This document shows, in pieces, positions 26,021 to 63,224 of a DNA stretch of 64,000 bases. The stretch comes from an uncultured Bdellovibrionales bacterium. GTDB lineage: Bacteria > Myxococcota > XYA12-FULL-58-9 > CAYXVF01. The stretch is from contig CAYXVF010000004.1 in NCBI GenBank assembly GCA_964468125.1, forward strand, positions 26,605 to 90,604, given 5' to 3'. Under the pieces are notes generated by a model. It was not told the origin of the DNA, did not search any database, and saw only the letters and a list, made by a program, of their open reading frames with translations. Each line of letters starts with the position of its first letter. Within the stretch, counting starts at the first letter, position 1. Made by a program: the position numbers and the translations under genes.

Positions 26021-26022
26021 AG

Positions 26023-33077: not shown

Positions 33078-33103
33078 AAGGCCACTCTGGGGGAGAGAAG
33101 TAA

Positions 33104-33910: not shown

Positions 33911-33922
33911 TCGGAGCACGCC

Positions 33923-34276: not shown

Positions 34277-34289
34277 AGTCGCTTTCGCG

Positions 34290-34910: not shown

Positions 34911-35315
34911 GTTCTTGCCTGTCATGGGAAAGACCTAGCCCGGGCCTTAGACCTGGTGCTAGCCCGTGCTTTGGTGCTAGCCCCGACAACCGCCATGCTG
35001 AACACGTCTTCCCAGAAGAAGGGCTTACCGAACAGATAAACGCCGAAAACGACCTTCTCCCAGATCGTGTTCAAGCCGCTCATCGTTTATTTGATCATGA
35101 TCACGGGATCGATCGAGGCGGTCGCGGCAGTGTACAGCTCGCCTGTCACCAGGTAGGCCAACACCAGACCTAGACTCACCAAGAAGACGAGAAACTGTAC
35201 CGGCGCGAGAATGCCTTGAACGAGGGTCCAGCGGGTTTCATCGCGCTTTCGCCGTTGCTCGGCGGTGTGTAGAAGAGCACCTATCTGTACTTAGAAAAGG
35301 CTCCAGGGGAGAAAG

Positions 35316-35333
35316 TGTCAAGTACAATTGACG
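35316..35333. promoter_or_regulatory. Candidate PpsR/CrtJ-type operator TGTCAAGTACAATTGACG upstream of the aerR-like gene. A second palindrome TACACTAGGGAGTGTA lies at 35346-35361.
   Basis: Matches TGTc-N10-gAC(G) in an AT-richer promoter region. The same TGTCAA half-site recurs at 60767 and 59323. Confidence 0.45.
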
Positions 35334-35495
35334 TCTGGACTTCTTTACACTAGGGAGTGTAGGTGTAGAAAGGGAGAGGAAAGGCGCTTAGGAATCAACT
35401 TGAGGCTCTCGACGACACGTGATTGGGTTGACCCGCTTTCAACTGCGCGCAGCGGACGCAGTAGGGGCCGAAGCGCACGCAATACGGGGGACAAT

Positions 35496-38657: not shown

Positions 38658-38658
38658 G

Positions 38659-40011: not shown

Positions 40012-41192
40012 GTCGCGAACAATTCGACGTCGTCGTCGTAGGGGGAGGACCGGCGGGCGCCACCGCCGCTCACGAGCTGGCCGAAAAGGGCCGGAGTGTG
40101 CTGCTGCTCGATAAACCGGGCCGCATCAAGCCCTGCGGAGGGGCGATTCCCCCACGGCTGATCCGCGACTACGAGATCCCTCAGAAGCTTCTGTGCGCGC
40201 GCATCAGCTCCGCACGGATGGTCTCGCCCACAGACCGCACGGTCGACATGCCGATCAATGGCGGCTACGTCGGCATGGTGAACCGCGAGGTCTTCGACGA
40301 GTTTCTGCGGGTCCGCGCCGCGGAAGTCGGCGCCGATCGACGGGACGGCAAATACCTGCACACCGAGCGAGATGCGGATGGGACCGCGGTCGTCGTGTAC
40401 CGGCCAGAGGGAGCGAGCAGCGAGGTCAAGATTCGCACGCGTCTCATCATCGGTGCAGACGGCGCAAAATCGCAGGTCGCCAAACAACTCGTTGGCGGAC
40501 CACCGGTGCCCTGCGTCTCCGCCTATCACGAGATCGTCGAGGCGCCGGAAAACCTCTCGGACCTCTACGATCCGAGCCGCTGCGACGTGATCTACAAGGG
40601 CGCGATCAGCCCGGACTTCTACGGTTGGGTCTTCCCGCATGGAGGGACCGCGAGCATCGGGACCGGAACGGCGGTGAAGGGCTGGTCGATCAAGGGAGCC
40701 ACGCGCGATCTTCGCGCCGCGGCCGGACTGAGCGACGCCAAGACGATTCGAGTGGAAGGCGCGCCGATCCCGATGAAGCCGCGCAAGCGCTGGGACAATG
40801 GGCGTGACGTGATCCTGTGCGGAGACGCGGCCGGCACGGTTGCACCGGCTTCAGGCGAAGGCATCTACTATGCGATGTACGGCGGCAGCTGTGCCGCGGA
40901 AGCGGGACACGCCTTTCTCAACTGTGACAACCCAGTGGCACTTAAACATGCCCGTAAGAAGTTCATGAAGCACCACGGGCGCGTGTTTTGGGTCCTTGGG
41001 ATCCTTCAGCGCTTCTGGTACAGCTCGGACAAGCGGCGCGAACGCTTCGTGAGCATCTGCCGCGATGAGGACGTACAGGACCTCACTTGGCAGGCATACA
41101 TGAACAAGGAGCTCGTCCGCGCCAAGCCGGCGGCGCACATGCGGATCTTCTTCAAGGACATTGCGCACCTCATGGGGCTCGTTTCGCCCTAG
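40008..41192 (+). CDS. bchP: Geranylgeranyl-bacteriochlorophyllide / GGPP reductase.
   Basis: FAD-binding N-terminus FDVVVVGGGPAGATAAHELAEKG and the conserved LIGADGAKSQVAK, GDAAGTVAPASGEGIYYAM. Confidence 0.9.
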   Translation: MSREQFDVVVVGGGPAGATAAHELAEKGRSVLLLDKPGRIKPCGGAIPPRLIRDYEIPQKLLCARISSARMVSPTDRTVDMPINGGYVGMVNREVFDEFLRVRAAEVGADRRDGKYLHTERDADGTAVVVYRPEGASSEVKIRTRLIIGADGAKSQVAKQLVGGPPVPCVSAYHEIVEAPENLSDLYDPSRCDVIYKGAISPDFYGWVFPHGGTASIGTGTAVKGWSIKGATRDLRAAAGLSDAKTIRVEGAPIPMKPRKRWDNGRDVILCGDAAGTVAPASGEGIYYAMYGGSCAAEAGHAFLNCDNPVALKHARKKFMKHHGRVFWVLGILQRFWYSSDKRRERFVSICRDEDVQDLTWQAYMNKELVRAKPAAHMRIFFKDIAHLMGLVSP

Positions 41193-41198
41193 GCTGCG

Positions 41199-41465
41199 GT
41201 GACCGAGTGGATCGAGAGCGGTGACTACCTCTGGTTTATTCTCGGGGTCGTCGTGGTCGAGGCGCTCGCGCTCAGCGTGGCGTCACGCCGAGTCTCGGGC
41301 TCCCTGACTGTCGTCGACGTCATCTTCCAACTCGCGGCGGGTGCGTTGCTGCTTCTCGCGGTTCGTAGCGCACTCATCGATGAGCCCTGGGCGGCCCTCG
41401 CCTTCGTCACCGCGTCGCTGCCCGCACACCTGGCGGATCTCTACCGCAGGTGGTCACAGGCGTAG
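41199..41465 (+). CDS. Small two-TM membrane protein downstream of bchP (hypothetical).
   Basis: 7-nt gap after bchP, so likely co-transcribed. Two hydrophobic helices. Confidence 0.4.
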   Translation: MTEWIESGDYLWFILGVVVVEALALSVASRRVSGSLTVVDVIFQLAAGALLLLAVRSALIDEPWAALAFVTASLPAHLADLYRRWSQA

Positions 41466-41469: not shown

Positions 41470-42249
41470 TCAGGGTTTCGCGAACAGCTCCGGGTCGAAG
41501 CCGTTGTTGAACTTCAGGTCCTTCATGGTCTCGAGCGTCCATTTGGCTTCGCTCGCGACGTTTCCCTCCCAATCGGAGGCGGTGTACTTGCGCTGAGTGG
41601 GGAGCTTTACGCCGTCTAAGTCTTCGTACTCGACGGTCATGAGCAGCGGCTCGCTGCGACCGAAGGCCATGACCGTGAACAAGAACCGATCAACGAGCTT
41701 GGTTTCGGGGTGAATGTAGAGGACATAGGCGTCCTTCGCGTCCCCGACTCCGTCTTTGAAGCCGATCGTCACGACCTCGTAGTCGACTCCATCGACTGAG
41801 CGCGTTCCTTCGTATCGGTAGGTGACCCCGGGATCCGCGAGCTTTTGCATCATCGCGAACCAGTAGAAGTTCGTCTTGCGGCTGAATCGTGCCCGGCTCA
41901 GCAGCGCCTCATCGTCACGAGGGCTGCCGTCGACGGTGACCCAAGCGGAGCGTCCGTCGAAGCCCTGGATCAAAACGCCTTCGAGGTCCGGCGAGGTCAC
42001 GCCTCGCTCGAGAAACTTCGCCCAGGACAGCTCGCCCGCGAAGCGATAGCGTTCGAGAGACACATCACGATCGCCACTCGCTCGCTCGTAGACATAGGTG
42101 TACTCGACATCTCGTTTCTCTCGCAGCTGCTCCATCGGTCCTACAGTCTCGATCATCTCCATGACGAGCGCCTTGCCTCGCACGCTCGTTGGCTCTGCGG
42201 CGACGAGCGTAGAAAGAGCGAGTCCACACGCGGAAATTGTGTTCATCAT
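41470..42249 (-). CDS. Secreted hypothetical protein with a signal peptide.
   Basis: N-terminal MMNTISACGLALSTLVAA leader. No recognisable catalytic motif. Confidence 0.5.
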   Translation of the reverse strand: MMNTISACGLALSTLVAAEPTSVRGKALVMEMIETVGPMEQLREKRDVEYTYVYERASGDRDVSLERYRFAGELSWAKFLERGVTSPDLEGVLIQGFDGRSAWVTVDGSPRDDEALLSRARFSRKTNFYWFAMMQKLADPGVTYRYEGTRSVDGVDYEVVTIGFKDGVGDAKDAYVLYIHPETKLVDRFLFTVMAFGRSEPLLMTVEYEDLDGVKLPTQRKYTASDWEGNVASEAKWTLETMKDLKFNNGFDPELFAKP

Positions 42250-42575: not shown

Positions 42576-43946
42576 TTGATGCCGGTCTCAACCGCCCAGC
42601 CGCGATGGTCGATCTACGCGCACGTCGAGCCGCGCCGTTCCCGGATCGATTGCGCCTGGAACGCCGTCAACATCAGCCGCAGCGGGGTCTTTGTGGCGGG
42701 CCAGCCACTGCTGAAGGCGGGCTCGAAGCTGGATGTGGTGCTCCATCTCCCTGGCGTCTACGGGCCGAGCATCGAGGTCAACGGTAGGGTCGAGGTGATA
42801 TGGAACCGGCCTCCCAAAGAAGCGACGCGCGATCGACCGGCTGGTATGGGCTGTCGTTTTCTTCAGCTCGAGCCGCGTAGTCGCCACGAGCTCGACTCGT
42901 TCATCGACGAGCTTCAGGACCATCGCCCTGCGGACTCCGGCGGATTTCGATCCGTTGCACCTGCAGTACCGCCACCGCCGGAAGCCGAGGATGACGTGAT
43001 CTCCCTCGAGGACATCGTCGATCGCCCCAAGACGCCGAGCATCATCGAGCCCTTCAGTGGCGAGCCCATGCCGCGTGCGGTAGTCCCGAAGACCTACGAC
43101 ACGCAGGAAAAGCTCGGTCACTATCGACTGTTGCGCACACTGGGAACGGGCGGCATGGGAGAGGTCTTCTTGGCCGAACACGAGCTCATCGGCCGCCGCG
43201 TGGCGATCAAGCGCCTGCACGACCAGTTCTCGCGCGATCCGCAAGCGGTTCGTCGGTTTTTCGATGAAGCGAAGCTGATCAATCAGATTTCGCACCCGAA
43301 CATCGTCGAGGTCACAGACCTCGTCTGCGACCAGCAAAACCTCTACTACGTGATGGAGCTCGTCGAAGGCACGACTCTCCTCGACGTGATCAAGCGCGAG
43401 AAGGGCCTGCCCCTCGAACGCGTTCTCAGAGTCGGCCTCCAGCTCGCCGACGCGCTCGACGCCGTGCACAACGCCGGGATCATTCATCGGGACCTAAAAC
43501 CTGACAACGTGCTCCTGACGCACCGGGCGGGTCGCAGTGACGTGGTCAAATTGTTGGACTTCGGGATTGCGAAGCTCCGCGTCGCTCACGAGCACGGCAG
43601 CCGCCACACGATGGTCGGGTTCGTCGTGGGCACGCCCGGCTACATGGCCCCGGAGCAGATCATGGGTGAGGCACTCGACCATCGAACGGACCTCTACGGG
43701 CTCGGGGTCCTGCTGCACGAAATGGTGGGCGGCAAGAGAGCGTTTTCGGGGAAGAGCTTCGGTGAGCTGATGCTGAAACAGTCCACGCAGGTCCCCGCAC
43801 CACCGAAACCACCTCGGGGCGCGGACATTCCGCTTGAGCTGAAGACGCTGATCGTGCAATGCCTCGAGCTCGCGCCCGCGGATCGTCCGCAGAGCGCCGC
43901 GGAAGTGCGCGATCGTTTGCGAACCGCCCTCGCCAACGCTGCCTGA
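42576..43946 (+). CDS. PilZ-domain / Ser-Thr protein kinase fusion.
   Basis: N-terminal PilZ-like region. Kinase subdomains GTGGMGEVF, VAIKRL, HRDLKPDNVLL, DFGIAK, GTPGYMAPE. Confidence 0.8.
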   Translation: MMPVSTAQPRWSIYAHVEPRRSRIDCAWNAVNISRSGVFVAGQPLLKAGSKLDVVLHLPGVYGPSIEVNGRVEVIWNRPPKEATRDRPAGMGCRFLQLEPRSRHELDSFIDELQDHRPADSGGFRSVAPAVPPPPEAEDDVISLEDIVDRPKTPSIIEPFSGEPMPRAVVPKTYDTQEKLGHYRLLRTLGTGGMGEVFLAEHELIGRRVAIKRLHDQFSRDPQAVRRFFDEAKLINQISHPNIVEVTDLVCDQQNLYYVMELVEGTTLLDVIKREKGLPLERVLRVGLQLADALDAVHNAGIIHRDLKPDNVLLTHRAGRSDVVKLLDFGIAKLRVAHEHGSRHTMVGFVVGTPGYMAPEQIMGEALDHRTDLYGLGVLLHEMVGGKRAFSGKSFGELMLKQSTQVPAPPKPPRGADIPLELKTLIVQCLELAPADRPQSAAEVRDRLRTALANAA

Positions 43947-44156
43947 GCCATCGCGCCCCAGGTTTTCCCGCGATTCTGGGCCAAAAAACTGGTGTTTGGG
44001 CGCGAAAATCGATGACAGTTCGAATCTGCGCGCCTCGATTAAACATCAAAGGGTTGCGTGTGTCTCGACGACTTTACTGGTATGTCGCTCGGGACGTTTT
44101 AGGCGCTTTGCCGGACTCATTCTGGCTAGGCGCATCATAGACAAGGGAGAAACATC

Positions 44157-44570
44157 GTGGACATCACGCGAGACATTGAACAGATCAGCCGTCGCGACGC
44201 CCTGAAGATTGTCGGTGGTGTGGCCGTAACCGGCGCGCTGGCGCTTGCCGGTTGCCAACAGGAAGCGGCCAAGGCCCCGGAAGTGAGGGCCCCGAGCGCG
44301 CCTACCGCTCCGGCACCGGAGCCAAAGCCCGAAGAGCCCGCGGCTGCGGACGCCGGCGGGGGGTGCAACGAGGGTATCGACGATGCGTCGAAGACCATGC
44401 GCACGACCCTCAAGTACGTCGAGAAGTCGCCGGAAGAGGGTAAAGTGTGCTCGAACTGCGCGCAGTACAAGGAACCGGAAGGCGACTCCGAGTGCGGTGG
44501 CTGCAACCTGTTCGCCGGTCAGGTGAACCCGAACGGCTACTGCATCAGCTACGCCCCCAAGGCGACCTGA
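44157..44570 (+). CDS. hip: High-potential iron-sulfur protein (HiPIP) with a Tat signal.
   Basis: Twin-arginine SRRDALKIVGG. Four Cys in the HiPIP arrangement CSNCAQY...CGGCNLF...YCISY. Confidence 0.85.
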   Translation: MDITRDIEQISRRDALKIVGGVAVTGALALAGCQQEAAKAPEVRAPSAPTAPAPEPKPEEPAAADAGGGCNEGIDDASKTMRTTLKYVEKSPEEGKVCSNCAQYKEPEGDSECGGCNLFAGQVNPNGYCISYAPKAT

Positions 44571-44594
44571 GCAGTCCGTAAATGACGGAAACAA

Positions 44595-44638
44595 AGAGCG
44601 CGCTCCCCTTTCTGGCTTGGGGAGCGCGCTTTTTTTTC
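44595..44638 (+). terminator. Strong rho-independent terminator after the HiPIP gene.
   Basis: Perfect 13-bp stem AGAGCGCGCTCCCC / GGGGAGCGCGCT followed by an 8-T run. Confidence 0.8.
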
Positions 44639-44684
44639 CCAGCGTCGCCTTTTCATTTCGAACCGATGCCGCTTCACCGACGGC

Positions 44685-44930
44685 GTGAAAGAGGCTGGTT
44701 GGTGCGTGGTTCCGGAGCACTTTGGCAAGGGCTACGCCACCGAAGCAATGACGCGCGCCCATCAGTGGCTCGAAGACGAAATCGGCGCCGAGCGCACCGT
44801 GTGTATCATCGAGCCTGACAACACGCCGTCCATGGCCCTGGCGAATCGGTTGGGCTATCGGCGCTTTGGTGGGTTCGAGATCAAAGGGACCGCAGTCGGC
44901 CTTTTCGACCGTCATATCCCCAGCAACTGA
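44685..44930 (+). pseudogene. Truncated GNAT N-acetyltransferase: C-terminal fragment only, from motif A onward.
   Basis: Retains HFGKGYATEAM (the Q/R-x-x-G-x-G/A region) and the C-terminal LGYRRFGG. An in-frame stop lies immediately upstream and the N-terminal two thirds are absent. Begins right after the HiPIP terminator. Confidence 0.5.
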
Positions 44931-45661
44931 ATTCCGAGGCCACTCAGGGCGATCGCAAGTCCCGCCGCGGTGTGCACGTGACGCTCGAGGACGTCGAAGA
45001 TCTTTGCGCGCAGCCCGTAGAAGCCGAAGGTCACGACCGTCAGCATGGTCGCCACCGTAGCGATACCGAACACCGCCACCACCGCGAGCACGAGCCAGGG
45101 GTCGCTCTGCGATGCGGGAACCATCAGGAGCGGGATCAACGCTTCGCACGGGCCCAGCACAAAAATGACAAAGAGGGCGCCGACCGTTGGTGCCGCCTTC
45201 ACGAACCCACCGGTGACATAGTCCCCGTGGTGGTGGTGGCGATGGCCGGACTCGGTGGGCTCGGCGTGATCGTGCGCATGACTGTGGACCGTGCCGTCTT
45301 CGTGCAGGTGCGCCGGAGAGCGTTTGCGCCACCCGCGATAGAATCCCCAGACGGTGTAGGCGAGACCAAAACCAATGAGCGTCCAGGCCGCGAGCGAGCC
45401 TCGTTGACTCTCGATCCACTCGAGCTGGCTCACGGCCACGCCCAAACCGATGCCGAACGCGCCGATCAACACGGACGAGAGCACGTGCCCCACGCCGCAG
45501 AGAGAGGTGATGAGCCAGGTCTTGCGTAGGGACCAGCCTTGGGCGCGACTGAGGACGATGAAAGGAATGGCGTGGTCCACGCCGATCAGCGTGTGGAGCA
45601 CCCCGACGGTCGCCGCGGTGGCGAGCAGGGTTTGTTCGATGCCGTCATCCATGGGCTTCAC
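44912..45661 (-). CDS. Nickel/cobalt transporter-like membrane protein (RcnA/HupE-like) with a His-rich loop.
   Basis: Six TM helices. Central loop HLHEDGTVHSHAHDHAEPTESGHRHHHHGDY. Last gene of the hyp operon, overlapping hypB. Confidence 0.55.
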   Translation of the reverse strand: MKPMDDGIEQTLLATAATVGVLHTLIGVDHAIPFIVLSRAQGWSLRKTWLITSLCGVGHVLSSVLIGAFGIGLGVAVSQLEWIESQRGSLAAWTLIGFGLAYTVWGFYRGWRKRSPAHLHEDGTVHSHAHDHAEPTESGHRHHHHGDYVTGGFVKAAPTVGALFVIFVLGPCEALIPLLMVPASQSDPWLVLAVVAVFGIATVATMLTVVTFGFYGLRAKIFDVLERHVHTAAGLAIALSGLGIQLLGI

Positions 45662-52457: not shown

Positions 52458-52587
52458 ATCAACGGGCTACGGAGATCAGGCGAAATTTCGAGGATTATCT
52501 TCGGAAATAACGAAAAGAGGCGGAACCCCTCGAGCTCAACGGGGCCACGCCTCGAATCGCTCAGCTCTGCATCGAACCTAGAGGATG

Positions 52588-53763
52588 TCAGCCCTCTTCG
52601 GCCCGCTCAGGGGCAGCCTCTTTGGGAGCACCGCCCTCTTCACCTTCGCCCGCTCCCTCCATCGGCTCGCCTTCTTCGGCCTCCTCCTTCGGCGGCGGGA
52701 CATATTCTTCATACTTCGCGAGCATCGGGTACTCGTCGATCATGGGCTTGCCCAAGACCGGCTTGTAGGCCCCCTGGTGACAGGTCTCGCAGTTGATCTT
52801 CGGCACGTCGCCCAGCTCACCCAGACGGTACTCTGGATAGTACTGCTCGAGCGCATAGTCGCCCTGACCGACCAGGTACTCCTGGTTCAGGTTGCGAACC
52901 ATGCGAATGCCGTACCACGCCTTCGTGCGGGTGATGGGACTCTGTCCCCACTCCGCCATCGCCCGGCTGTTGTGACAGTAGGTGCAGTTGACACCCAGCG
53001 CATTCGACATGTGCATCATCAGACCATAAGTGGCCTCGGTCTGTTTGATGGTCCGCGTGTTGGTCGTCGGCAGAGCGGTCGGACCCACCACGCGAATGTT
53101 CATGTCGTTGTAGAGATAGTCGGAGAACGAGGTGCTCGGAAGCGAGGTCAAGCCCTGCTCCGGGTGCGCCTTGTTGACAGACGAGAAGCCGCCGACCATC
53201 CGCGTCATGTTCGGGTCTGGTGTTTCCTCAAACCAGATGTACTCCGGAACGTTCTTGCCGCGGTGGCAGGTCCAGCAGTTGACCCCGGTCTCACCGACAT
53301 GGGTCTTCCAGTTCTCATTGATGTGCTGGGTCATTTGGATCATGCGCCGCGAGACGTGCTTGGTGTAGTACTCGTCCGAGGACATCTTCTCGGGGTTGTG
53401 ACAATAGTTGCAGCCCTGCGGATACCCCTCGGGATGCTGATTGTCGCCACCCACTGGCGCCACCCAATTGGTCAGGTTGTTCATCAGTCCCGTGAATGAC
53501 CCGGTGCTGAGCGCTCCCAAAACCTTGACGTTCTCGTAGGCTTCGCCCGCTTTCGCGCCCGCGTCTCCCCAAGGGATCCGCATCGGATAGTTGGCGTTCT
53601 TTTCTTCGAGCTCATCGAGCGCAGACTGGCTGGTGACGTGCTCCATACCGACGCCGTCCGGGCCACGTTGCACGGAGCGTGCGTCCATGGCGACGCCGAA
53701 GGACCAGATCCCCAGACCCAGCGCGCCGAGGCCCGCGAGGACTTGAAACGATAAGAATCTCAT
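52588..53763 (-). CDS. pufC: Photosynthetic reaction-centre tetrahaem cytochrome c subunit.
   Basis: Four CXXCH sites: CNYCHN, CWTCHR, CTYCHN, CETCHQ. Start overlaps the pufM stop (ATGA), as is typical. Confidence 0.85.
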
Positions 53764-54455
53764 TTCAGCACTCCCATCCCGTCAGGGGTTGCGACCGTCG
53801 CCAGGTCGGGCATCACCTGGTCGTTGAAGGTGTAGTCGGGGGCGATCCCGTGCTTCACCGCCCAGAGGTACCAGTTGTCGACCACGGTCCCTGTAAGAAG
53901 GATGCCGATTCCCCCCGTAAGGGTGCACAACACTACAAACCACCATGCCCAGCGGTGGATGGATTCAAACGTAGCGTTGAAGCCCATGCACCAGCGCCAG
54001 AACAAACCGGCACGCTAAGCGGCAGTTCCCTGATCGACGATCTGGCCGATCTCACGTTCGCCAGCGAAATGCCCCACGGCCAAGACGGTCGCCCCGTGCA
54101 TGGCGAAGAGCAGGGTCGAGCCGTAGAGGAACACGATCGAGAGCGCGTGGAACGGGTTGTAGAACAGATTGCCGTAGCGCAGTGAGAACGCCGCGGTCCA
54201 ATCGAGGTGCGGGAAGATCCCAAAGGGTACCGCCTCACCCCAGTTGCCCATGAGGATCGGTCGCGACGAAGCCAAACAGCAGCGACGCGATCCCCCAGTA
54301 CCCTAGATAGATCGGGCCGAACTGCGCACTTCCCAGCCGACCCGCGAGGTGCAGGAAGCCCTTCTTGCGCGTCCCCACGATTCAGGAATCGCGATGTCCT
54401 CGTGGACCGGCCCCCGCACCTGAAACTGAGTGAATAGGTTCTGAGACTCAGGCAT
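53760..54455 (-). pseudogene. pufM: Reaction-centre M subunit gene, disrupted by an internal deletion of about 120 codons, at least two frameshifts and an in-frame amber codon.
   Basis: Recognisable PufM segments lie in three different frames: MPESQNLFTQFQVRGP (ATG at 54455 with an AAGGGGAG RBS), [46 protein letters not shown]...[31 protein letters not shown]...GTAA, then TAG at 54017-54015 where PufM has Glu, then [25 protein letters not shown]...[20 protein letters not shown]. Only 696 nt are present, against about 975 expected. Confidence 0.7.
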
Positions 54456-54471
54456 TGCGTGCTCCCCTTAG

Positions 54472-54507
54472 CACGCGATACCTACATTCAAAGCTGAGCA
54501 AGGCCAG
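54472..54507 (-). pseudogene. pufL: Reaction-centre L subunit gene remnant: 12 N-terminal codons only.
   Basis: Minus-strand GGAGA-N6-CTG GCC TTG CTC AGC TTT GAA TGT AGG TAT CGC GTG encodes (L)ALLSFECRYRV, the conserved PufL N-terminus. CTG stands where ATG is expected. The frame then runs into the pufM RBS and start. About 800 nt of pufL are absent. Confidence 0.55.
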
Positions 54508-54602
54508 TTAGCGTCTCCAATTCGCGAGCTCGAAAGGGACCAAAGACGGGCGAAGCATGCGCGCGCGTCGCCCCGCCCGTCCTGGCTTGAGTCCCAACCC
54601 GG

Positions 54603-54785
54603 CTACGGTGAGCCAGGCATGGCTTGCGACGTTTGCCCCACCGAAGGGGTGCCGGCCGCGTCGAGCCAGTTGAACCGCTCAGTGCTGAGCAGCACAAAGT
54701 GAATGACAATCGCGAGTACGAAATTGAACGCCCAAAGAGCGACCAAATACGGACGCGGATCGAAAATCTTCCAGAATCTCCACAT
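54603..54785 (-). CDS. pufA: Light-harvesting 1 alpha polypeptide.
   Basis: [41 protein letters not shown], with the BChl-ligating His in the TM helix. 12-nt gap to pufB. Confidence 0.85.
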
Positions 54786-54797
54786 AGTCGATCCCCC

Positions 54798-55016
54798 TTA
54801 CACGAACATGTTGAACGTCGACTGTGCGACGGTTTGTGCATCTTGAATCATGGAGTAGCCGTCTAGTCCTGCCAACCAGGGTCTCCACATCCAAGTGAGG
54901 ATATGAGCAATGATCGCAATCACAACGAACGTCACGAACGCCATGATGAAACCACTGTGGAATTCTTTGGCCTCTTCATCAGTAAGACCTGACAGGGCCC
55001 TTGTTGGTTCTGCCAT
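54798..55016 (-). CDS. pufB: Light-harvesting 1 beta polypeptide, with an unusual C-terminal extension of about 24 residues.
   Basis: SGLTDEEAKEFHSGF...IAHILTWMWRPWL core. The ORF then continues AGLDGYSMIQDAQTVAQSTFNMFV before the stop. Confidence 0.8.
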   Translation of the reverse strand: MAEPTRALSGLTDEEAKEFHSGFIMAFVTFVVIAIIAHILTWMWRPWLAGLDGYSMIQDAQTVAQSTFNMFV

Positions 55017-55095
55017 CTAGTTTTCCCTTTCAGCTAGCCTTGGTACTTCTAACTATCCTCGACTCACGTCGATGAGAAACTCTTCGATTCTCTCC

Positions 55096-55371
55096 CTAAG
55101 CCCGGAAAACACTCCCGAGCGCGGTCTGAACCTCAACATGTGCTTCCCTAAACACTGATTGTCGAACTGGCTTGGCATTCCCGATGAATCCGCGGGTCCA
55201 GCTCCTAGGAAGGAGCCGCTGGACCACCACGTAGGGGAATACGAACGTCATCGCGATCACGTAGTAGAGCGATGACTCCACGATGTCGCCGAGCTTCCGG
55301 CGCGGAACGTGGAACAACGGGGCCTCTAGAGTGGCCCGACGCCGACTGACTGGGAGCGTGACTGCTTTCAT
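55096..55371 (-). CDS. pufQ: PufQ-like small membrane protein (position and architecture only).
   Basis: 91-aa ORF between bchY/Z and pufB. Single TM segment LYYVIAMTFVFPYVVV and a ...SVFRA C-terminus reminiscent of PufQ. Start overlaps the upstream stop (ATGA). Confidence 0.4.
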   Translation of the reverse strand: MKAVTLPVSRRRATLEAPLFHVPRRKLGDIVESSLYYVIAMTFVFPYVVVQRLLPRSWTRGFIGNAKPVRQSVFREAHVEVQTALGSVFRA

Positions 55372-57368
55372 GTGAGGCCTCCTCCTGCTTGGGCCACTGC
55401 GGACCCGTTCATTCGCTTCTTGGATTTACGCGCGGCCACTCGGGCCACGGTGACGCGACTGTCACCCTGGAGCTTCGCGTCGTGCTCAATCGTGTCGCGC
55501 AACGTCTTCGCCGCGGAGATGCGCGTGAGGACCGGCACCTCGCTCACCATCTCGTCGAGGAGCGCTTCGCAGAGCGCGCGACCATACTCGCGGTACATCA
55601 CGACGTTTACGTCGGCGTCCACGAGACGAGGCACCTGCGCGAGATGCGAACCCAGGGCGAAGACCATGTTGATCTCCGCCCCGATGCCTTCGACAAGGCG
55701 ACGGATCTCGGCGAGGTCACTCGGCATGTTGAAGTTGGAACCGGTCACCACCACGCTCGGCAGTGATGGGTCCAAAGCTTCGTGTGCGCGACGCATCGCG
55801 CCTTCGGTCCCCTTCTTCCCGAGCTCTTCCTCGGACGCGACGCCGGCCTTTTCGCCTGGCGCGTTCTTGGCGAGGCGAGCGCGTTTCGCTTTTTTACGGT
55901 CTGCCAATTGCTTCTTGCGAAACTTCTCGTCGTCTTTTGGAACGTCTTCCCAGATCCCCGAGGCATGCCCCGTGCCGACGCCGGAGAAGAAATCGTTCAT
56001 CGCGTCAAAGCGCGGCTTGCTCGCCATCGCTGCGTTCACGACCTGCGCGAGGGAGCCAGCCCCCGCGGGCCCCATCAGCGGGCGCGCGGAAATGAGGTTG
56101 GTGAAGTAGAGCGCGGGGGTGGCGCTTTCCTTCGCGGCCTGTACCACCGGCGTGGTTCCCACAACCAAATCCGGCTCGAATTCCTTCATCGCAGCGAGGT
56201 CCTGCTCGAGCGATGCACGGTACTGCACCTGCACGCCACGGGCCTTCAGCCACTCACTGTCGGCAGAAGACCACTCGGTCTTTGCACAGGCCGTCCCGAC
56301 GTAACGCACGTCCGCACCGCTCTCGATCAACAGGCGAGCAACGAGCAGCTCAGAGCCTTCGTAGCCGGACAACGTGATCCGCCCTTTGATGGGCATCCCA
56401 GCGAGCGCACCCTGGATCGCGGGCAGGATCGCGTTCTGCGCGGCGGCTATTTTCTCCGCGGAAACCCCCGCCTGCTGCCCCACGGCCTTCAGCCATTCGG
56501 CGGTGCCGTCGTGGCCCACCGGAGCAGAACCCACGATCGGCCGACCGGCAGCCGCAAACTCACGGAAGGTAGCGACATAGAACGGGTGGATCGCAGCCGC
56601 GACGGTGCAATCGAGCGCGGCATATTGCTCACGCCATTCGCGCGTGGGCACCACGGGCCCGGCGGCGAGCTCCATCGGGGCGAGCATGCGTCCGATGGTG
56701 ATGGGATCGACCGGGAACATTTCACCGACCAGCGCGACCGTCGGCAGCTTCGCATGTCCCTCGCGCGGCGCTTGGACGGGCCCAGCCTCCGCCTCTCTTC
56801 GAGCGTAGGCGAGCATGGCGCCGGCGAGCACGTCCTTGGCTTCCGCATGGGTCGGCACACCAAAGCCCGGGACGTCGATCCCGACGATTCGCACGCCATT
56901 GATCGTCTTCGGAAGCAGGCGCAGCGGCACCCCCGATGCGGTGGGAACACAGAGGTTGGTCACCACGAGCGCGTCGTACTTCTCGGGGTCCGCGAGGTCG
57001 TGAACCGCGTCGCGAATGTCTTCGAAGAGCTTGCCGGTAACCAGAGTCTCCGAATCAAACGGCACGTAGCCGACGGTGCGCCGAGCGCCATAGAAGTGCG
57101 ACGTGAAGGTGAGGCCGTAGACACAGCAGGCCGAGCCCGAAAGGACCGTCGCCGTACGACGCATGCGCAATCCGACGCGCAGGGAGCCAAAGGCGGGGCA
57201 CATGCTCTGCGGCTGGTCGTGGGGGCCAACAGGATAGTCCGCGGCGTAGCGATCGAGCACATCGCTCTTGCCCGCTGCGGCGGCGGCTTCACGCAGCTTC
57301 TCTCGCCCACCATGGCAGCCACTTTCTGTGGCGTTCTTTGCCTCGACGCTCGTCACTTTCGTTCTCAC
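55368..57368 (-). CDS. bchY: Chlorophyllide a reductase subunit Y, fused in frame to a short remnant of subunit Z.
   Basis: N-terminus GCHGG...PQSMCPAFGSLRVGLRMRR...SGSACCVYGLTF matches BchY. The last ~130 aa carry BchZ-like blocks GTEGAMRRAHEALDPSLPSVVVTGS and NFNMPSDLAEIRRLVEGIGAEINMV. There is no separate bchZ: only about 2.0 kb is available for bchY plus bchZ, where about 3.0 kb is expected. Confidence 0.7.
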   Translation of the reverse strand: MRTKVTSVEAKNATESGCHGGREKLREAAAAAGKSDVLDRYAADYPVGPHDQPQSMCPAFGSLRVGLRMRRTATVLSGSACCVYGLTFTSHFYGARRTVGYVPFDSETLVTGKLFEDIRDAVHDLADPEKYDALVVTNLCVPTASGVPLRLLPKTINGVRIVGIDVPGFGVPTHAEAKDVLAGAMLAYARREAEAGPVQAPREGHAKLPTVALVGEMFPVDPITIGRMLAPMELAAGPVVPTREWREQYAALDCTVAAAIHPFYVATFREFAAAGRPIVGSAPVGHDGTAEWLKAVGQQAGVSAEKIAAAQNAILPAIQGALAGMPIKGRITLSGYEGSELLVARLLIESGADVRYVGTACAKTEWSSADSEWLKARGVQVQYRASLEQDLAAMKEFEPDLVVGTTPVVQAAKESATPALYFTNLISARPLMGPAGAGSLAQVVNAAMASKPRFDAMNDFFSGVGTGHASGIWEDVPKDDEKFRKKQLADRKKAKRARLAKNAPGEKAGVASEEELGKKGTEGAMRRAHEALDPSLPSVVVTGSNFNMPSDLAEIRRLVEGIGAEINMVFALGSHLAQVPRLVDADVNVVMYREYGRALCEALLDEMVSEVPVLTRISAAKTLRDTIEHDAKLQGDSRVTVARVAARKSKKRMNGSAVAQAGGGLT

Positions 57369-58399
57369 ACCTCGTCGTAGATGATTTCGAGTGAAGGCTT
57401 CTTGACCGCCTTCGCACCGCAGAGGTCCACGCTCGTTGCCGGCTCGAGTACGACATCGCGTCCCGTCGCGTCCGCGGCGAAGAGATCGAGAAGCTGGTCC
57501 TGGGTCAGCGGATTCGGATAGAGCGGCGGGCTCTCGGCGACGTTGACGCCGAGTGCCTCAAAGAGCGGGCCCCATCGACTGTCCGGTCGCCCGATGATCT
57601 CGTACATGCCGCTCTTGCGGCGAATGTCTTCGTCCGCAGGGATCGAAGCGAGGACCGGAATCCCGACAGTCTCCGCGAAAGCCTGCGCTTCGCCCGTGCC
57701 GTCGTCTTTGTTGACCACGATTCCGGCGACGCCAACATGGCCGCCGAGCCTTCGGAAGTAGTCCGCGGCAGAGCAGACGTTGTTGGCGACGTAGAGCGAT
57801 TGTAGGTCGTTCGAGGCGACGACGATCACCTTCTGGCACATGTCGCGGGCGATCGGCAGACCGAAGCCGCCACAGACGACATCGCCGAGAAAGTCGAGAA
57901 GCACGTAGTCGAAGTCCCAATCGTTGAAACCGAGCTTCTCGAGCGTTTCGAAGCCGTGAATGATGCCGCGTCCGCCGCAGCCACGGCCAACCTCCGGGCC
58001 GCCTAGCTCCATGGCGAAAACGCCGTCGCGCTTGAAGCAGACGTCGCCGATCTCGACCGCTTCGCCCGCGGCTTTCTTCTTGGCGGTCGTCTCGATGATC
58101 GTGGGGCACGCCTTACCCCCGAAGAGCAGGGAGGTCGTGTCGCTCTTGGGATCGCAACCGATCAGCAAGACCTTCTTGCCTTGCTGCGCCATCATGTACG
58201 ACAGGTTTGCGAGGGTGAAGCTCTTGCCGATCCCTCCCTTGCCGTAGATCGCGATGATCTGCGTTTCCTTCGTGGGTGCAGTGGTCACCGGCGGCGAGGG
58301 ATCCTGCGCTGCTTCGGCCTTCAGGTTGTCATCGATCTCTTTGATCGAAGTCGCGCCCTCGGCGCTCACCGGTCCAACGTTCATCCGTGTTCCCTCCAA
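57365..58399 (-). CDS. bchX: Chlorophyllide a reductase iron-protein subunit X.
   Basis: NifH-like P-loop IAIYGKGGIGKSFTLANLS and Cys ligands. 344 aa. Confidence 0.9.
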   Translation of the reverse strand: MEGTRMNVGPVSAEGATSIKEIDDNLKAEAAQDPSPPVTTAPTKETQIIAIYGKGGIGKSFTLANLSYMMAQQGKKVLLIGCDPKSDTTSLLFGGKACPTIIETTAKKKAAGEAVEIGDVCFKRDGVFAMELGGPEVGRGCGGRGIIHGFETLEKLGFNDWDFDYVLLDFLGDVVCGGFGLPIARDMCQKVIVVASNDLQSLYVANNVCSAADYFRRLGGHVGVAGIVVNKDDGTGEAQAFAETVGIPVLASIPADEDIRRKSGMYEIIGRPDSRWGPLFEALGVNVAESPPLYPNPLTQDQLLDLFAADATGRDVVLEPATSVDLCGAKAVKKPSLEIIYDEV

Positions 58400-59307
58400 T
58401 CCAACAGCATCTTGAGACAGCTCGGGTCCGTGAACGCGGCGCGATAGGCCTCGTTCGCGTCGTCTGCGGCTCGACGATGGGTGATCAGCTCATCCAGGCT
58501 CAGTGCGCCTTCCGCCACGAGGTCGTTGACCCGCACCAGGTCCTGCGGCTGCCATTCAGCAGCGATGCGGAAACGTGCCTCTTTCATGAAGGCGGGCGGA
58601 AAGGCGAAGTTGACGCGCTCGCTGTAGAAGCCGGCGAGAACGATCTCGCCCCCGCGCACGAGCGCGCGCACCAACGTATCGAAGATTGCGGAGTCGCCAC
58701 TGACGTCGACGATCACCCGATAGGTCGCTCGAGCGTCTTCATCCGGGTGTACGACGCGGTACCCCTGGGCACCGTTCGCTCGAATGGAATTGGTTTCCCA
58801 GACGGTGGGAGCGCCACCACGGGCCACCGCGAGGCGCGCGAGCAGTCGTCCCAGCACACCGTGCCCAACGATCAGATCTGGGATTTCGTCGGCGAGAGCA
58901 TGCTCGGCGGTCGCCGCGAGCGCGAGCAAGACACCCTTGTCTCCGAGACTCTCAGCGATTGGGATGACGCGATCCGCAGGGACGACCAGCGTGGATGCCG
59001 CGCCACCGAATAGCCCACGAACGTCTACGAAGCCGTTGGAGCCTGGGACAAATACCGTCGTACCATCGGCGATCCGCTCGTTGCCGCGTACGACCCGCCC
59101 GACGGACTCGTAGCCAGGTACCAGCGGGTAGCCCATTCCTGGGAAAGGCGGCATTTTTCCGGACCAGAGCAGCCGTTCCGTGCCGGTGCTGATGCCACTC
59201 CAGTCTACATCGACCACCACGTCACCGTCGCCCGGGGTGGTCAACGTGACGGGACTGAGTGTCAGGTGTTCCGGCTCCTGGAGCACCACTGCTTTGGCTT
59301 CCGTCAT
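58381..59307 (-). CDS. bchC: Bacteriochlorophyllide a dehydrogenase (zinc-type ADH fold).
   Basis: MTEAKAVVLQEPEHL...VDVDWSGISTGTERLLWSGKMPPFPGMGYPLVPGYE. Start at 59307 chosen by homology; the track ORF extends upstream to 59484. Confidence 0.85.
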   Translation of the reverse strand: MTEAKAVVLQEPEHLTLSPVTLTTPGDGDVVVDVDWSGISTGTERLLWSGKMPPFPGMGYPLVPGYESVGRVVRGNERIADGTTVFVPGSNGFVDVRGLFGGAASTLVVPADRVIPIAESLGDKGVLLALAATAEHALADEIPDLIVGHGVLGRLLARLAVARGGAPTVWETNSIRANGAQGYRVVHPDEDARATYRVIVDVSGDSAIFDTLVRALVRGGEIVLAGFYSERVNFAFPPAFMKEARFRIAAEWQPQDLVRVNDLVAEGALSLDELITHRRAADDANEAYRAAFTDPSCLKMLLDWREHG

Positions 59308-59322
59308 GGGTGTAAAGTGCAC

Positions 59323-59342
59323 TTGACACTCGCGAGTGTCAA
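59323..59342. promoter_or_regulatory. Perfect 20-bp palindrome TTGACACTCGCGAGTGTCAA 16 nt upstream of the bchC start codon. Candidate PpsR-type operator or -35 overlap.
   Basis: Self-complementary sequence sharing the TGTCAA/TTGACA half-site with the sites at 35316 and 60767. Confidence 0.45.
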
Positions 59343-59510
59343 TATGCGTAGCCGCTTTTCTTAAGCCAATTTTTAAGCGATTTCGGGCGAATTCGGTGAA
59401 TCGGCCGCGGATCCCGGGCGCAGGGAGCCGCCCAATTCGTTCAGATTGCGCGCGATCGCGCTCTGAGCGCCCCAGGAGCGCCACTGAGGGCTCGAAGAAT
59501 GTGATCGGAA

Positions 59511-60707
59511 TCAGATCCGCGTAGCGATCAGCAACTGTGTAAGCATCGGGCGTCGGGTCCGGATCCGACGTGCACCCACAAATCCGGCCGCACCGAGCAT
59601 GGCGCTGAGCTCTTCGGGGGAGCGTGGCCGGCCATGGCCCATCGCGAGCAGATAGAGACCGAAGTAGGCGTCACCCATGGGGAGGGCGCCGCGCGTTCGC
59701 GCCATCGGCTCGGCGAGGAGGAGAGTCCCACTTTTCGGCAGGGCCTGGTGGACGGCGCGCAGGATCTCCACCGCAGGGCCATCGTCGTGGTCGTGAATGA
59801 TGCGCACGAGGGAGACCACATCGGCGCCATTGGGGAGGGGATCGGAGAACAGATCGCCTCCCACGACCGTCGCCCGGTCATCGAATCCGTTCGCGGTCAA
59901 ACGTGCGCGTGCTCGCTCGGCGACCGCGGGGAGGTCAAAGAGCATCAGATCGAGCTCTGGGTGCGCCTGCGCCACCGCACTCAGGAACGCCCCTTCTCCG
60001 CCGCCGACGTCCATGAGTGTCCGGTGGCGACCGAGATCATAGGCTTCTAATACGTCGCCTGCAATGAATTGCTGGGACTCAGCCATCAGAGCGGAGTATT
60101 GGGCGACGCGCTCGCCGCCGAGGTCTCCAGGCGTCTCGCTGCTGGAGTAGGCCCAGAACTCGCCGAGCTCGGTGCTCGGCAGCTCGTTGCGCAGCAACGC
60201 CAAGGGATCGGTCAGGTCCCGGTAGAGCATCGGGTGGTGCTCGATCATTCGCGCGACACCCGGATTACCGCGCAAAGCCGCCCCGAGCATGCCCAAGCCG
60301 TAGGTGCGCGCACCGCGCCGCTGCAACAGACCCAACGACACCGCCGCGTCCAGGAGCCGCCTCATGTTCGCGGGCTTGATGTTCGCGCGACGAGCGAGCT
60401 CCCCAGCTTCGAGTGGCCCGTCGGCGAGCTGCTCGAAGAGGTCGAGGCGCACGCATGCGTAGAGCACCTGCGAATAAACGAACCCCGCGCACAAATCGAA
60501 GAGCTGCGTGGCCCGCCGAGTCGCGATCCAGCGAATAAACGGGAATCCGGCGGCCCAGCGCTGGAATTTCTCGCTCGCGAGTAGGCGGTTTCGAAGGGCG
60601 TGCCAGCGATCGACGAGCGCGCTCCACCCACTGCGACGTGGGACCAGCGCGCGATCGGCCGAAGTGGCCATCTCGGTGGGCTTGGCCTGATCCATGGGCG
60701 ATTTCAT
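59511..60707 (-). CDS. crtF: Carotenoid O-methyltransferase (demethylspheroidene O-methyltransferase family). Start codon uncertain.
   Basis: Class I O-MTase SAM motif LMDVGGGEGAFLSAVA and a dimerisation N-domain. Position upstream of bchC matches crtF. Confidence 0.7.
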   Translation of the reverse strand: MKSPMDQAKPTEMATSADRALVPRRSGWSALVDRWHALRNRLLASEKFQRWAAGFPFIRWIATRRATQLFDLCAGFVYSQVLYACVRLDLFEQLADGPLEAGELARRANIKPANMRRLLDAAVSLGLLQRRGARTYGLGMLGAALRGNPGVARMIEHHPMLYRDLTDPLALLRNELPSTELGEFWAYSSSETPGDLGGERVAQYSALMAESQQFIAGDVLEAYDLGRHRTLMDVGGGEGAFLSAVAQAHPELDLMLFDLPAVAERARARLTANGFDDRATVVGGDLFSDPLPNGADVVSLVRIIHDHDDGPAVEILRAVHQALPKSGTLLLAEPMARTRGALPMGDAYFGLYLLAMGHGRPRSPEELSAMLGAAGFVGARRIRTRRPMLTQLLIATRI

Positions 60708-60766
60708 AGCGCCATTCCGAGTGAGAGGTAATCCCAGTTGCCTATTCGCTTCCTGACAGGCTAAGG

Positions 60767-60784
60767 TGTCAAGGCAGATAGACA
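60767..60784. promoter_or_regulatory. PpsR/CrtJ consensus operator TGTCAAGGCAGATAGACA in the divergent crtF / crtD promoter.
   Basis: Exact TGTC-N10-GACA, 33 nt upstream of the crtD GTG start. A half-site repeat TGTCAAG lies at 60811. Confidence 0.55.
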
Positions 60785-60816
60785 CTTAGACGCCTATTTC
60801 GGATTGGACGTGTCAA

Positions 60817-62340
60817 GTGAAACGGAAACGCGTGGCTGTTGTAGGTGCCGGGATGGGTGGGTTGGCCGCCGCCATCGACCTCTCTCGAGCAGGCCATGCG
60901 GTCACCGTACTCGAACGGCGCTCAGCACCGGGCGGAAAGATGCGCGAGGTGCAGGTCGGGGACGCGGCGGTGGATTCTGGCCCAACGGTTCTCACGATGC
61001 GCTGGGCCTTCGAAAACCTGTTTCGCGATGCGGGCGCGGCGCTCGGTGAGCGCGTGACCTTGCGCAAGGCGGACATTCTCGCGCGGCACGCCTGGAGCGA
61101 GACCGAGCGACTCGATCTCTTCAGCGACGACGAAAAGAGCGCCCACGCGATCCGAGAGTTCGCCGGTTCCGATGCTGCACAGGGCTACCTCGCGTTCCGA
61201 AAGCGCGCCCGGGAGATCTACGAAACCCTCGAACACACCTTCATTCGAGCTTCGCAACCGTCGCAGCTCGGCTTGGTACGGCGCTCCGGGGGTTTGGTCA
61301 GCCTGCTGAAGATCAACCCGTTCGAGAGCATGTGGAAGGAGCTCTCCCGCCACTTCGCCGATCCGCGTTTGCGCCAGCTCTTCGGTCGCTACGCGACTTA
61401 TTGCGGCTCGAATCCCTTCGAGGCACCCGCGACCCTGATGCTCGTCGCGCACGTCGAGCTCGATGGCGTGTGGATCATCGAGGGAGGCATGCAACGGCTC
61501 GCCGAAGCGATGGCGAAGCTCGCGGCCGAGCTCGGAGCGGAGATTCGCTATGACAGCGCGGTGGAAGAGCTCGAGCGCGAAGGAGGCAAGGTTCGCGCGC
61601 TCCGCCTTGAGAATGGGGAGCGCATCGAATGCGACGCGGCGGTCGTCAACGCGGCACCGTCGGCCCTAGCGCGCGGATTCCTCGGCGACTCCGTACGCGG
61701 TGCAACGCGCCCTCTCGCGCGCTCAATGCGGTCGCTCTCGGCGATCACCTGGACCCTTCATGCGAAAACCCGAGGCTTTCCGCTTGAGCGCCACAACGTG
61801 TTTTTCAGCCGCGATTACGAACGCGAATTCCGCGAAATCCTCCAGGAGCACCGATTTCCCTCCGAGCCCACGGTTTACGTGTGCTGCCAGGATCGAGGTC
61901 ATGGCTCGGTTCCGGATGGCGCGGAGCGATTGTTCATGATCATCAATGCCCCGCCAGTGGGTGACCAACACTCATTTTCCGAAGCGGAGATCGAAGCATG
62001 CAAGACGCAGACGTTCTCAGTCCTGGAGAGGTGCGGCCTGACGATCGAACCGGGACCGACGGTGGTCACGACACCCAACGACTTCGAGGCGATGTTTCCC
62101 GGGACCGGCGGGTCGATCTACGGGATGGCGACGCACGGCTCGCGCGCGTCGTTCAAACGCCCGAGCTCTCGAAGCAAGATCCCGGGGCTCTACTTCGCGG
62201 GCGGGGCGACACACCCGGGAGCGGGTGTGCCGAATTCGACCGTATCCGGCCGGCTCGCCGCGGCCGCGGTGCTGGAAGACTTCGATTCGACGTCCTGGTG
62301 GGCTCCCGCGGATATTCGTGGTGGTACGTCGACGCTCTGA
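60817..62340 (+). CDS. crtD: Carotenoid desaturase of the phytoene-desaturase family (CrtD-like hydroxyneurosporene desaturase).
   Basis: FAD dinucleotide-binding motif VAVVGAGMGGLAAAIDLSRAGHAVTVLE. 507 aa. Adjacent to crtC. Confidence 0.75.
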   Translation: MKRKRVAVVGAGMGGLAAAIDLSRAGHAVTVLERRSAPGGKMREVQVGDAAVDSGPTVLTMRWAFENLFRDAGAALGERVTLRKADILARHAWSETERLDLFSDDEKSAHAIREFAGSDAAQGYLAFRKRAREIYETLEHTFIRASQPSQLGLVRRSGGLVSLLKINPFESMWKELSRHFADPRLRQLFGRYATYCGSNPFEAPATLMLVAHVELDGVWIIEGGMQRLAEAMAKLAAELGAEIRYDSAVEELEREGGKVRALRLENGERIECDAAVVNAAPSALARGFLGDSVRGATRPLARSMRSLSAITWTLHAKTRGFPLERHNVFFSRDYEREFREILQEHRFPSEPTVYVCCQDRGHGSVPDGAERLFMIINAPPVGDQHSFSEAEIEACKTQTFSVLERCGLTIEPGPTVVTTPNDFEAMFPGTGGSIYGMATHGSRASFKRPSSRSKIPGLYFAGGATHPGAGVPNSTVSGRLAAAAVLEDFDSTSWWAPADIRGGTSTL

Positions 62341-63224
62341 GCGATGACGGACAACATGGACTGACCATAATTGGCTTCATCGGGAGCGTATTCTCACCCT
62401 ACTACGCCTGGACCGATTGGCGAGCTCCGGAGAATCACTGCGCGATCAACGTAGCCCTCTACGGCCCGCAAAGCCGCTGGGCCATGACCGAGCGCGGTGC
62501 AGCGAGCCTCGAGCGCGATAGAGACGAGCTTCGCGTGGGACCGAGCCACATGCGTTGGGAAGACGACGGCTTGACGATCGCGTTCGATGAGATCGGTTGT
62601 CCGCTGCTACGCCGGGTCAAAGGACGCGTGCGGGTGGAACCCGAGTGCGTAAACGAAGTTGGATTCGCGATCACCAATCGGCACTCCTGGTGGCCCATCG
62701 CGCCGAGTGCACGCGTCCGGGTCGAGCTCGACCAACCTTCGATGGCATGGTCCGGACACGGCTATCTCGACTCGAATTGGGGTACGGAGCCGCTGCAAGA
62801 GGGCTTTGTCGATTGGAACTGGTCGCGCACCGGCGACGACGACGGCACCTTCATCACCTACGACTGTCAGTGTCGTGACGGCGCAGAGCGTACGACCGCC
62901 CTCGCTTTTGCACGAGACGGTTCCCTCTCGAGCTTCGAGGCGCCCCCCATGCGGCCATTGAGTCGCACCTTTTGGCGTGTGCCGCGCCAGGGCCGCGGCG
63001 AGCAGGCACGGGTGGTGCAGAATTTGGAGGATACGCCGTTCTACACCCGGTCCATTCTCGAAACGGAGCTGATGGGGCGACCGGTGAGAGGCGTACACGA
63101 GAGCCTATCGCTCGATCGCTTCGCGAGTACCATCGTCCGGCTGATGCTGCCCTTCCGCATGCCCCGGAATACGTTCGCCGCTCGCGCTCTCACCGGCCGC
63201 ACGGGCGGCTCGCTCACGCGCTAG
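62298..63224 (+). CDS. crtC: Hydroxyneurosporene synthase (carotenoid 1,2-hydratase).
   Basis: Conserved WWYVDALSDDGQHGLTIIGFIGSVFSPYYAW block. The proposed GTG start lies inside the crtD 3' end, giving an overlap of about 40 nt. Confidence 0.65.
   Translation: MGSRGYSWWYVDALSDDGQHGLTIIGFIGSVFSPYYAWTDWRAPENHCAINVALYGPQSRWAMTERGAASLERDRDELRVGPSHMRWEDDGLTIAFDEIGCPLLRRVKGRVRVEPECVNEVGFAITNRHSWWPIAPSARVRVELDQPSMAWSGHGYLDSNWGTEPLQEGFVDWNWSRTGDDDGTFITYDCQCRDGAERTTALAFARDGSLSSFEAPPMRPLSRTFWRVPRQGRGEQARVVQNLEDTPFYTRSILETELMGRPVRGVHESLSLDRFASTIVRLMLPFRMPRNTFAARALTGRTGGSLTR

Follow-up and report, generated by a model that had tools for sequence, protein, structure and literature searches.

To our knowledge, phototrophy in Myxococcota is known only from metagenome-assembled genomes (MAGs). 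Photosynthesis gene clusters (PGCs) of this group have been described by Li et al. 2023 (PMC10576062), all of whose 32 MAGs were selected for having pufLM, and for Candidatus Photomyxococcus marinus (PMC13043013). The distribution of phototrophy among Myxococcota is patchy, and it is debated whether this reflects repeated loss or repeated horizontal gain: Li et al. argued for vertical inheritance, with extensive losses as one possible deeper history, and for Kuafubacteriaceae a history of four losses has been compared with one of four horizontal transfers of the operon (PMC13043013). In the present study, we analysed a 64-kb stretch of the 107.9-kb MAG contig CAYXVF010000004.1 (hereafter the window, which is the whole of the DNA examined), and found in it a PGC of this kind in a damaged state. 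Four of its genes, namely pufL, pufM, bchZ and bchF, carry at least 10 independent lesions, and the relatives represented by contigs L029 and L035 are intact at the lesion sites. We consider it very likely that the window preserves a genuine and recently inactivated PGC in a Myxococcota genome, that is, a relic of phototrophy that is being lost in place.

The cluster in the window agrees with the described Myxococcota PGCs (PMC10576062; PMC13043013) in content and gene order, crtC/D/F-bchCXYZ-pufBA(LM)C, and also in the series aerR-ppsR-bchG-lhaA-like-bchP that stands next to bchF. The arrangement bchP-lhaA-bchG has been reported only for Candidatus Kuafubacteriaceae (PMC10576062), and the window has bchG-lhaA-like-bchP. 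In addition, pufC adjoins hydrogenase-related genes, as it does in the relatives L032 and L034. The best named matches of PufC and PufM are from Myxococcota MAGs, the Cox1 of the contig falls into a cluster, at 90% identity or more, with proteins named 'Myxococcota bacterium', and the window therefore belongs among the PGC-bearing uncultured Myxococcota of Li et al. 2023. The described clusters carry pufLM, whereas in the window pufL, pufM, bchZ and bchF are pseudogenes, and bchN and the genes that follow it are missing from their syntenic place. When compared with type-II reaction-centre L/M genes (PF00124), the remnants are unmistakably those of pufL and pufM, but they have no continuous open reading frame (ORF).

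The lesions were mapped by six-frame translation, tblastn and DNA alignment with relatives, and all features are on the minus strand unless stated. The relatives L029 and L030 are Logan contigs, and they and L035 come from samples other than that of the window; L029 and L030 have 89% nucleotide (nt) identity to the window over 55568 to about 54471, and L035 has 82% over 34989-41455. The PufL and PufM proteins used as tblastn references came from loci with about 1.8 kb of pufL plus pufM between pufA and pufC. A scan of genome contigs with PufC returned Proteobacteria only, at 50% identity or less, and these were used as reference proteins and not as close relatives. In a collection of 5.8 billion proteins, the closest PufM among the best 120 matches was P0153, which is complete at 329 amino acids (aa). 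A scan of JGI metagenomes with a 24-mer conserved in the window and L029 gave 0 matches. The features of the puf region, which carry the greater part of the argument, are as follows (LH1, light-harvesting complex 1; RBS, ribosome-binding site).

54798-55016, minus strand: pufB (LH1 beta), intact, 72 aa; matches Pfam LHC at 1-39 of 39 and has the same length as in L029
54603-54785, minus strand: pufA (LH1 alpha), intact, 60 aa; matches Pfam LHC over its full length
54508-54602, minus strand: pufA-pufL intercistronic region, retained, with a GC-rich stem-loop and UUU after it; identity to L029 of about 90%
54472-54507, minus strand: pufL remnant of 12 codons, LALLSFECRYRV; from the sequence and the alignment with L029
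54369-54467, minus strand: pufM RBS (GGGGAG), ATG at 54455 and N-terminal fragment; from translation, tblastn and comparison with P0153
54262-54372, minus strand: pufM fragment 2, residues about 30-65 including GPIYLG, in a different frame; from tblastn (frame -2) and alignment
54261-54264, minus strand: junction of the internal pufM deletion; from DNA alignment with the pufM of L034
53763-54263, minus strand: pufM fragment 3, residues 162-329, in the first frame again; 83-89% aa identity to intact PufM
52588-53763, minus strand: pufC (reaction-centre tetrahaem cytochrome), intact, 391 aa; matches Pfam CytoC_RC (PF02276) at 6-310 of 310

From the pufA stop to the pufC start there are only 839 nt (54602-53764), in the place where the reference loci have about 1.8 kb of pufL plus pufM. 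The start of pufL is a CTG at 54507-54505, and L029 has ATG there. After 12 codons the gene is cut at a deletion junction at about 54471/54470, with the remaining approximately 260 codons gone; the sequence runs on as C-TAA-GGGGAG and then reaches the pufM ATG at 54455. The homology to L029 is lost right after ...CGNGTGC, 12-13 codons into pufL, and in L029 and L030 the gene is initiated by ATG and continues for at least 170 codons. A functional pufL would be an ORF of about 270-280 codons with a start codon, a PF00124 match and five transmembrane helices, and none such is found here; the PufL references gave only weak paralogous tblastn matches to the pufM remnant.

For pufM, a continuous ORF of about 325-330 codons matching PF00124 would be expected, and what we found is three fragments in two frames. 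Residues 1-29 are read in the first frame (54455-54369), up to a frameshift at 54376-54369 that is either -1 in a run of G or -4; at this place P0153 reads ...ESWGRTRKK.... The internal deletion measures 290 nt against L034 (2 mod 3, about 96-97 codons) and removes PufM residues of about 66-161, including two transmembrane helices. Its junction has a CGA microhomology within an imperfect direct repeat, GGCTTCrTC(G)CGA, one copy of which encodes GFVA and the other GFIRP. Fragment 3 is interrupted by a TAG at 54017-54015, where P0153, P0154 and P0155 have Glu, and the native pufM TGA (53762-53760) overlaps the pufC ATG. The Photo_RC profile is matched by the remnant only at positions 116-196 and 202-259 of 260, so that 1-115 are unmatched. 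No second pufL or pufM was found in the window by tblastn.

The genes on both sides of this interval are complete. pufB and pufA are full-length PF00556 ORFs with the bacteriochlorophyll-ligating His in the transmembrane helix (His20 and His38 are both present in pufB), and pufA differs from its relative P0003/L029 by 1 amino acid. pufC has four CxxCH motifs, at residues 118, 163, 260 and 325, and its product is 79% identical to P0014 (394 aa). PufC and P0014, its closest relative, are without the C-terminal OmpA domain (PF00691) and have an acidic, Glu-rich tail instead; the domain is present in the next-closest Myxococcota PufC proteins, P0015-P0017, of about 500 aa. The stem-loop between pufA and pufL has an RNA fold of -44.9 kcal/mol, with a z-score of only -1.6.

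The initial annotation of this DNA, made from the sequence, had already recognised much of this damage. Its description of intact pufB, pufA and pufC was borne out by the full-length Pfam matches and the retained His and CxxCH motifs, and the short gap that it gave as 840 nt differs from our measurement by a single nucleotide. The 12 codons of pufL with CTG for ATG that run into the pufM RBS, the N-terminus of pufM and the GPIYLG block in different frames, and the TAG at the conserved Glu were likewise recovered, by alignment with L029, by six-frame translation with tblastn, and by alignment with P0153, P0154 and P0155, respectively. Two details have to be corrected. The lost block of pufM, which had been put at about 120 codons, is about 96-97 codons long, and the +1 insertion proposed before RPILMG is not a separate event; what had been read as an insertion is the junction of the 290-nt deletion, which shifts the frame because 290 is not divisible by three.

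The damage is not confined to pufLM. In the same cluster, bchY and bchZ together would be expected to occupy about 3 kb, and here we found a single ORF of 666 aa in their place.

55368-57368, minus strand: 666-aa ORF, an intact bchY that continues in frame into a gutted bchZ; from tblastn and blastp with BchY and BchZ of L002 and L009
55096-55371, minus strand: conserved ORF of 91 aa (orf91) between bchZ and pufB; present in L029 and L030

The BchY part is complete (TIGR02015 positions 1-422 of 422). On the 468-position TIGR02014 profile, for which the cut-off is 529 bits, the BchZ part reaches 127.8 bits, with its best stretch at 165-222 only, and about 155 of 490 residues remain, fused to BchY. 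They are residues of about 62-93 (55835-55737), 169-227 (55736-55563) and 433-486 (55562-55371). Three in-frame deletions have produced this arrangement, with junctions at about 55836-55850, at 55737/55736 and at 55568-55563, and the third of them has a GAAGCG microhomology. The homology to L029 starts exactly at 55568, and L029 and L030 carry the upstream bchZ segment that the window lacks. The fusion ORF ends at the native bchZ stop, which overlaps the orf91 ATG (ATGA). orf91 has no Pfam match; its position is that of pufQ in Rhodobacter, but it is not recognisable as PufQ.

A fourth broken gene lies upstream of aerR.

34989-35284, minus strand: bchF pseudogene; from six-frame translation, blastn and alignment with L035

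Its start codon has been changed from ATG to ATA (35284-35282), and an inversion of about 41-52 nt (35063-35114), with TCGATC palindromes around it, creates a TAA at 35089-35087. Furthermore, the 3' end is truncated at 34989, so that the gene lacks approximately its last 61 codons, no bchN follows it, and cox3 stands next to it instead. L035 has an intact bchF of 159 aa in this place, followed by bchN. An ORF of about 160 codons with a start codon would be expected for a functional bchF, and the window matches PF07284 only at profile positions 2-53 and 68-95 of 139. The block that adjoins the truncated bchF directly, where L035 has bchN, is made up of an Alternative Complex III operon (ActA-like multihaem cytochrome, Mo/FeS subunit, NrfD-like subunit and an ActD-cytochrome c fusion) and then SCO1 and an aa3-type oxidase (cox2, cox1 and two cox3-like ORFs); it spans 20755-34910.

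Taken together, the reaction-centre core cannot be made from this locus, because pufL is almost wholly deleted and pufM is broken three times, which agrees with what the initial annotation had concluded for the photosystem core. Nor can chlorophyllide a reductase be made from it, because bchZ is gutted, or the BchF hydratase, and the bchF-NBHLM operon is cut off after the truncated bchF. The rest of the cluster and its surroundings are in good order, and the features concerned are listed below.

35496-41192, plus strand: intact aerR/ppaA-like gene (B12-binding), ppsR, bchG, pucC/lhaA-like gene and bchP; full-length Pfam or NCBIfam matches
57365-63224: intact bchX, bchC and crtF (minus strand), crtD and crtC (plus strand); full-length NCBIfam equivalog matches for BchX, BchC, CrtD and CrtC, and Pfam
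63395 to beyond 64000, minus strand: C-terminal part of bchD, which runs off the window; frame open to the window end

Eight PGC proteins (BchX, BchC, CrtD, CrtC, BchG, BchP, PpsR and BchY) cover practically the whole of their NCBIfam/TIGRFAM models, and the scanned neighbours from outside the PGC (Alternative Complex III, cox and hyp genes) match Pfam over their full length. Since the other PGC genes tested and the neighbouring genes scanned are full length, the breakage is specific to the four PGC genes. Two candidates for further breakage were rejected: bchD, which appears as a mechanical ORF of 180 aa, is not truncated, as its frame is open to the window end, and the 408-aa ORF at 61998-63224 (plus strand) is not a frameshifted gene, but full-length crtC (1-274 of 278) with a spurious upstream extension. 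This ORF overlaps crtD by about 340 nt; its residues 124-391 match CrtC, and the real start is near 62367.

The substitution pattern bears on the time of the inactivation. The ratio of nonsynonymous to synonymous substitution rates (dN/dS) against relatives was 0.02 in pufA, 0.045 in orf91, 0.16 in the bchZ remnant and 0.26 in pufB, and it was 0.03-0.12 in aerR, ppsR, bchG, the pucC-like gene and bchP against L035, with a dS of 0.2-1.2 between the window and the relatives. Such low ratios at this level of divergence suggest that purifying selection acted for most of the time since the lineages separated, and hence that the decay is probably recent.

The decay of a gene cluster is in itself a known process. 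For the loss of phototrophy genes in Proteobacteria, Zheng et al. 2012 (PMC3338782) proposed a model in which a cluster that has taken one disabling hit is no longer under selection in any of its parts and is then lost; the window would show the intermediate stage of this model. We suggest that the same may have happened here: once a single hit had disabled the module, selection on all of it would have been relaxed, and spontaneous mutation could then have eroded the cluster by microhomology deletions (slippage between short direct repeats), the -1/-4 indel, the nonsense mutation, two start-codon losses and, in bchF, a small inversion between short inverted repeats. The junctions have the pattern that replication slippage or microhomology-mediated deletion would produce. 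According to this proposal, pufBA, pufC, bchXY, bchC, crtCDF, bchGP, ppsR and aerR are still intact most likely because there has been too little time for them to decay, and the organism would now be non-phototrophic. The lesions are multiple, they lie in one module, and the close relatives do not have them; the homology of L029/L030 and of L035 to the window ends exactly at the junctions. With regard to whether the lesions belong to real DNA, we used Logan assemblies, which are made from single runs, here SRR7048221 and SRR7048222. L027 and L028, from the two runs, have 100% identity to the window over 56091-54663, a stretch that takes in the three bchZ junctions; L031 has the same identity over 54144-53008, where the pufM TAG lies. 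Four lesions (the three bchZ junctions and the TAG) are thus reproduced in independent single-run assemblies, and independent confirmation does not extend to the deletion junctions of pufL and pufM.

Several observations weigh against this interpretation. No Logan contig was found over 54663-54144 by exact look-ups with the remnant ORFs, with ten guessed edge-truncated peptides and with a guessed partial PufA, so that three sites are seen in the MAG contig only, at about 54471 (pufL junction), about 54373 (pufM frameshift) and about 54263 (junction of the pufM deletion). A MAG is moreover a population consensus, and an intact allele could coexist in the population; likewise, the analysis covered 64 kb, and a second pufLM, bchZ or bchF could lie elsewhere in the genome. 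All three bchZ deletions are in frame, for which the chance is about 1/27, a result that is a little unexpected under neutral decay, and the two frame changes in pufM (the -1/-4 indel and the 290-nt deletion) cancel each other, as their sum is a multiple of three. Finally, the PufM remnant has 11 lineage-specific residue changes, some of them in otherwise invariant motifs (Y4S; HLGGERE to HFAGERE), against 7 in P0153; such an excess would speak for decay, but it is not statistically significant. Three alternatives can be built on these points and are weighed in the following.

It could be argued that the pufL and pufM deletions are an artefact of assembly or consensus, or a minor deletion allele in a population whose dominant members have an intact pufLM. 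We regard this as very unlikely. It takes its strength from the three junctions that were not recovered in Logan contigs, and from the places where those contigs break off: those of the two runs stop at 54673 and 54663, and the next one starts at 54144, a gap that could be due to graph branching from strain variation or to low coverage. However, these ends are 120-200 nt from the junctions and not within k of them. At the junctions without independent support there is a microhomology of only 3-13 nt, and no direct repeat of at least 14 nt exists in 53500-56200, so that a false join based on k-mers is not plausible; De Bruijn assemblers cannot join over 3-13 nt in the absence of reads that bear the junction. 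The TAG and the three bchZ junctions are lesions of a like kind that were reproduced at 100% identity in two runs, and the lesions of bchF are further independent damage. On the same grounds, the mis-assembly that the initial annotation had put forward as one option is unlikely, and its other option of a decaying relic is supported and extended by the broken bchZ and bchF and the missing bchN, which it had not noticed.

A second functional set elsewhere in the genome would leave the organism phototrophic and make the copy in the window a decaying, redundant duplicate. There is a precedent in Citromicrobium sp. JL354, where two sets of reaction-centre genes are documented (PMC3338782); the inspected 64 kb leaves room for such a set, and the intact pufBA, pufC, regulators and most of the bch and crt genes are consistent with continued use. 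We nevertheless consider it improbable. Duplicates of four genes and of the bchN-containing operon would be needed to restore phototrophy, no second pufL, pufM, bchZ or bchF is present in the window, and among the best 120 PufM matches there is no intact PufM on a contig of the length of the window's own (107,928 bp). Furthermore, the synteny with relatives (pufBALMC next to hyp/hup, and bchF-aerR-ppsR-bchG-lhaA-bchP) shows that this is the ancestral, vertically inherited cluster. There remains the reading that the cluster has been remodelled, in which the LH1 genes pufBA, pufC, orf91, the carotenoid genes, the bchXY-delta-Z ORF and the regulators are kept under selection for a role without a reaction centre, which might be photoprotection or electron transfer through PufC, and the frame-preserving deletions would have been tolerated since they leave the genes downstream translated and expressed. 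The three in-frame bchZ deletions, the fusion ORF that ends at the native stop overlapping the orf91 ATG, the very low dN/dS of pufA and orf91 and the retained hairpin region between pufA and pufL all fit with it. Yet a pairwise dN/dS averages both lineages, and a low value is expected if the decay is recent; the in-frame pattern has a probability of about 0.04 by chance and was noticed only after the fact, and the pufL deletion is out of frame. Without BchZ, BchF and the bchN-containing operon no bacteriochlorophyll a would come from the cluster, and LH1 would be without its pigment. Remodelling therefore has little probability in our assessment, and we retain a recently inactivated PGC as the best explanation of the locus.

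The nearest parallel in the literature is the comparison of Citromicrobium JLT1363 with JL354 (PMC3338782), which follows the same model of loss. JLT1363 no longer has the cluster, and its loss was inferred by comparison, whereas the window preserves an intermediate stage in which each lesion can be placed to the base by alignment with intact relatives. A cluster in mid-decay that is syntenic with intact relatives is direct evidence of loss by decay in place in Myxococcota, and the route that it shows is one of many small microhomology deletions and not of a single excision. It also has a practical consequence, as a survey that takes pufB, pufA, pufC, bchX, bchY or pufM fragments as markers would count this genome among the phototrophs by mistake.

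Some minor observations concern the neighbourhood of the cluster. In L034, pufC is followed by about 6.8 kb before hypF, with the small and large subunits of a NiFe-hydrogenase, hycI and three more genes. In the window (52458-52587), pufC is followed directly by hypF, and the structural hydrogenase genes are absent between them; hypF, C, D, E and B are intact. Between bchP and the hyp genes there are two ORFs, at 41470-42249 with a borderline DUF6503 match only and at 44046-45419 with no family match, which lie near a gene for a Ser/Thr protein kinase with an N-terminal PilZ domain (42576-43946, plus strand).

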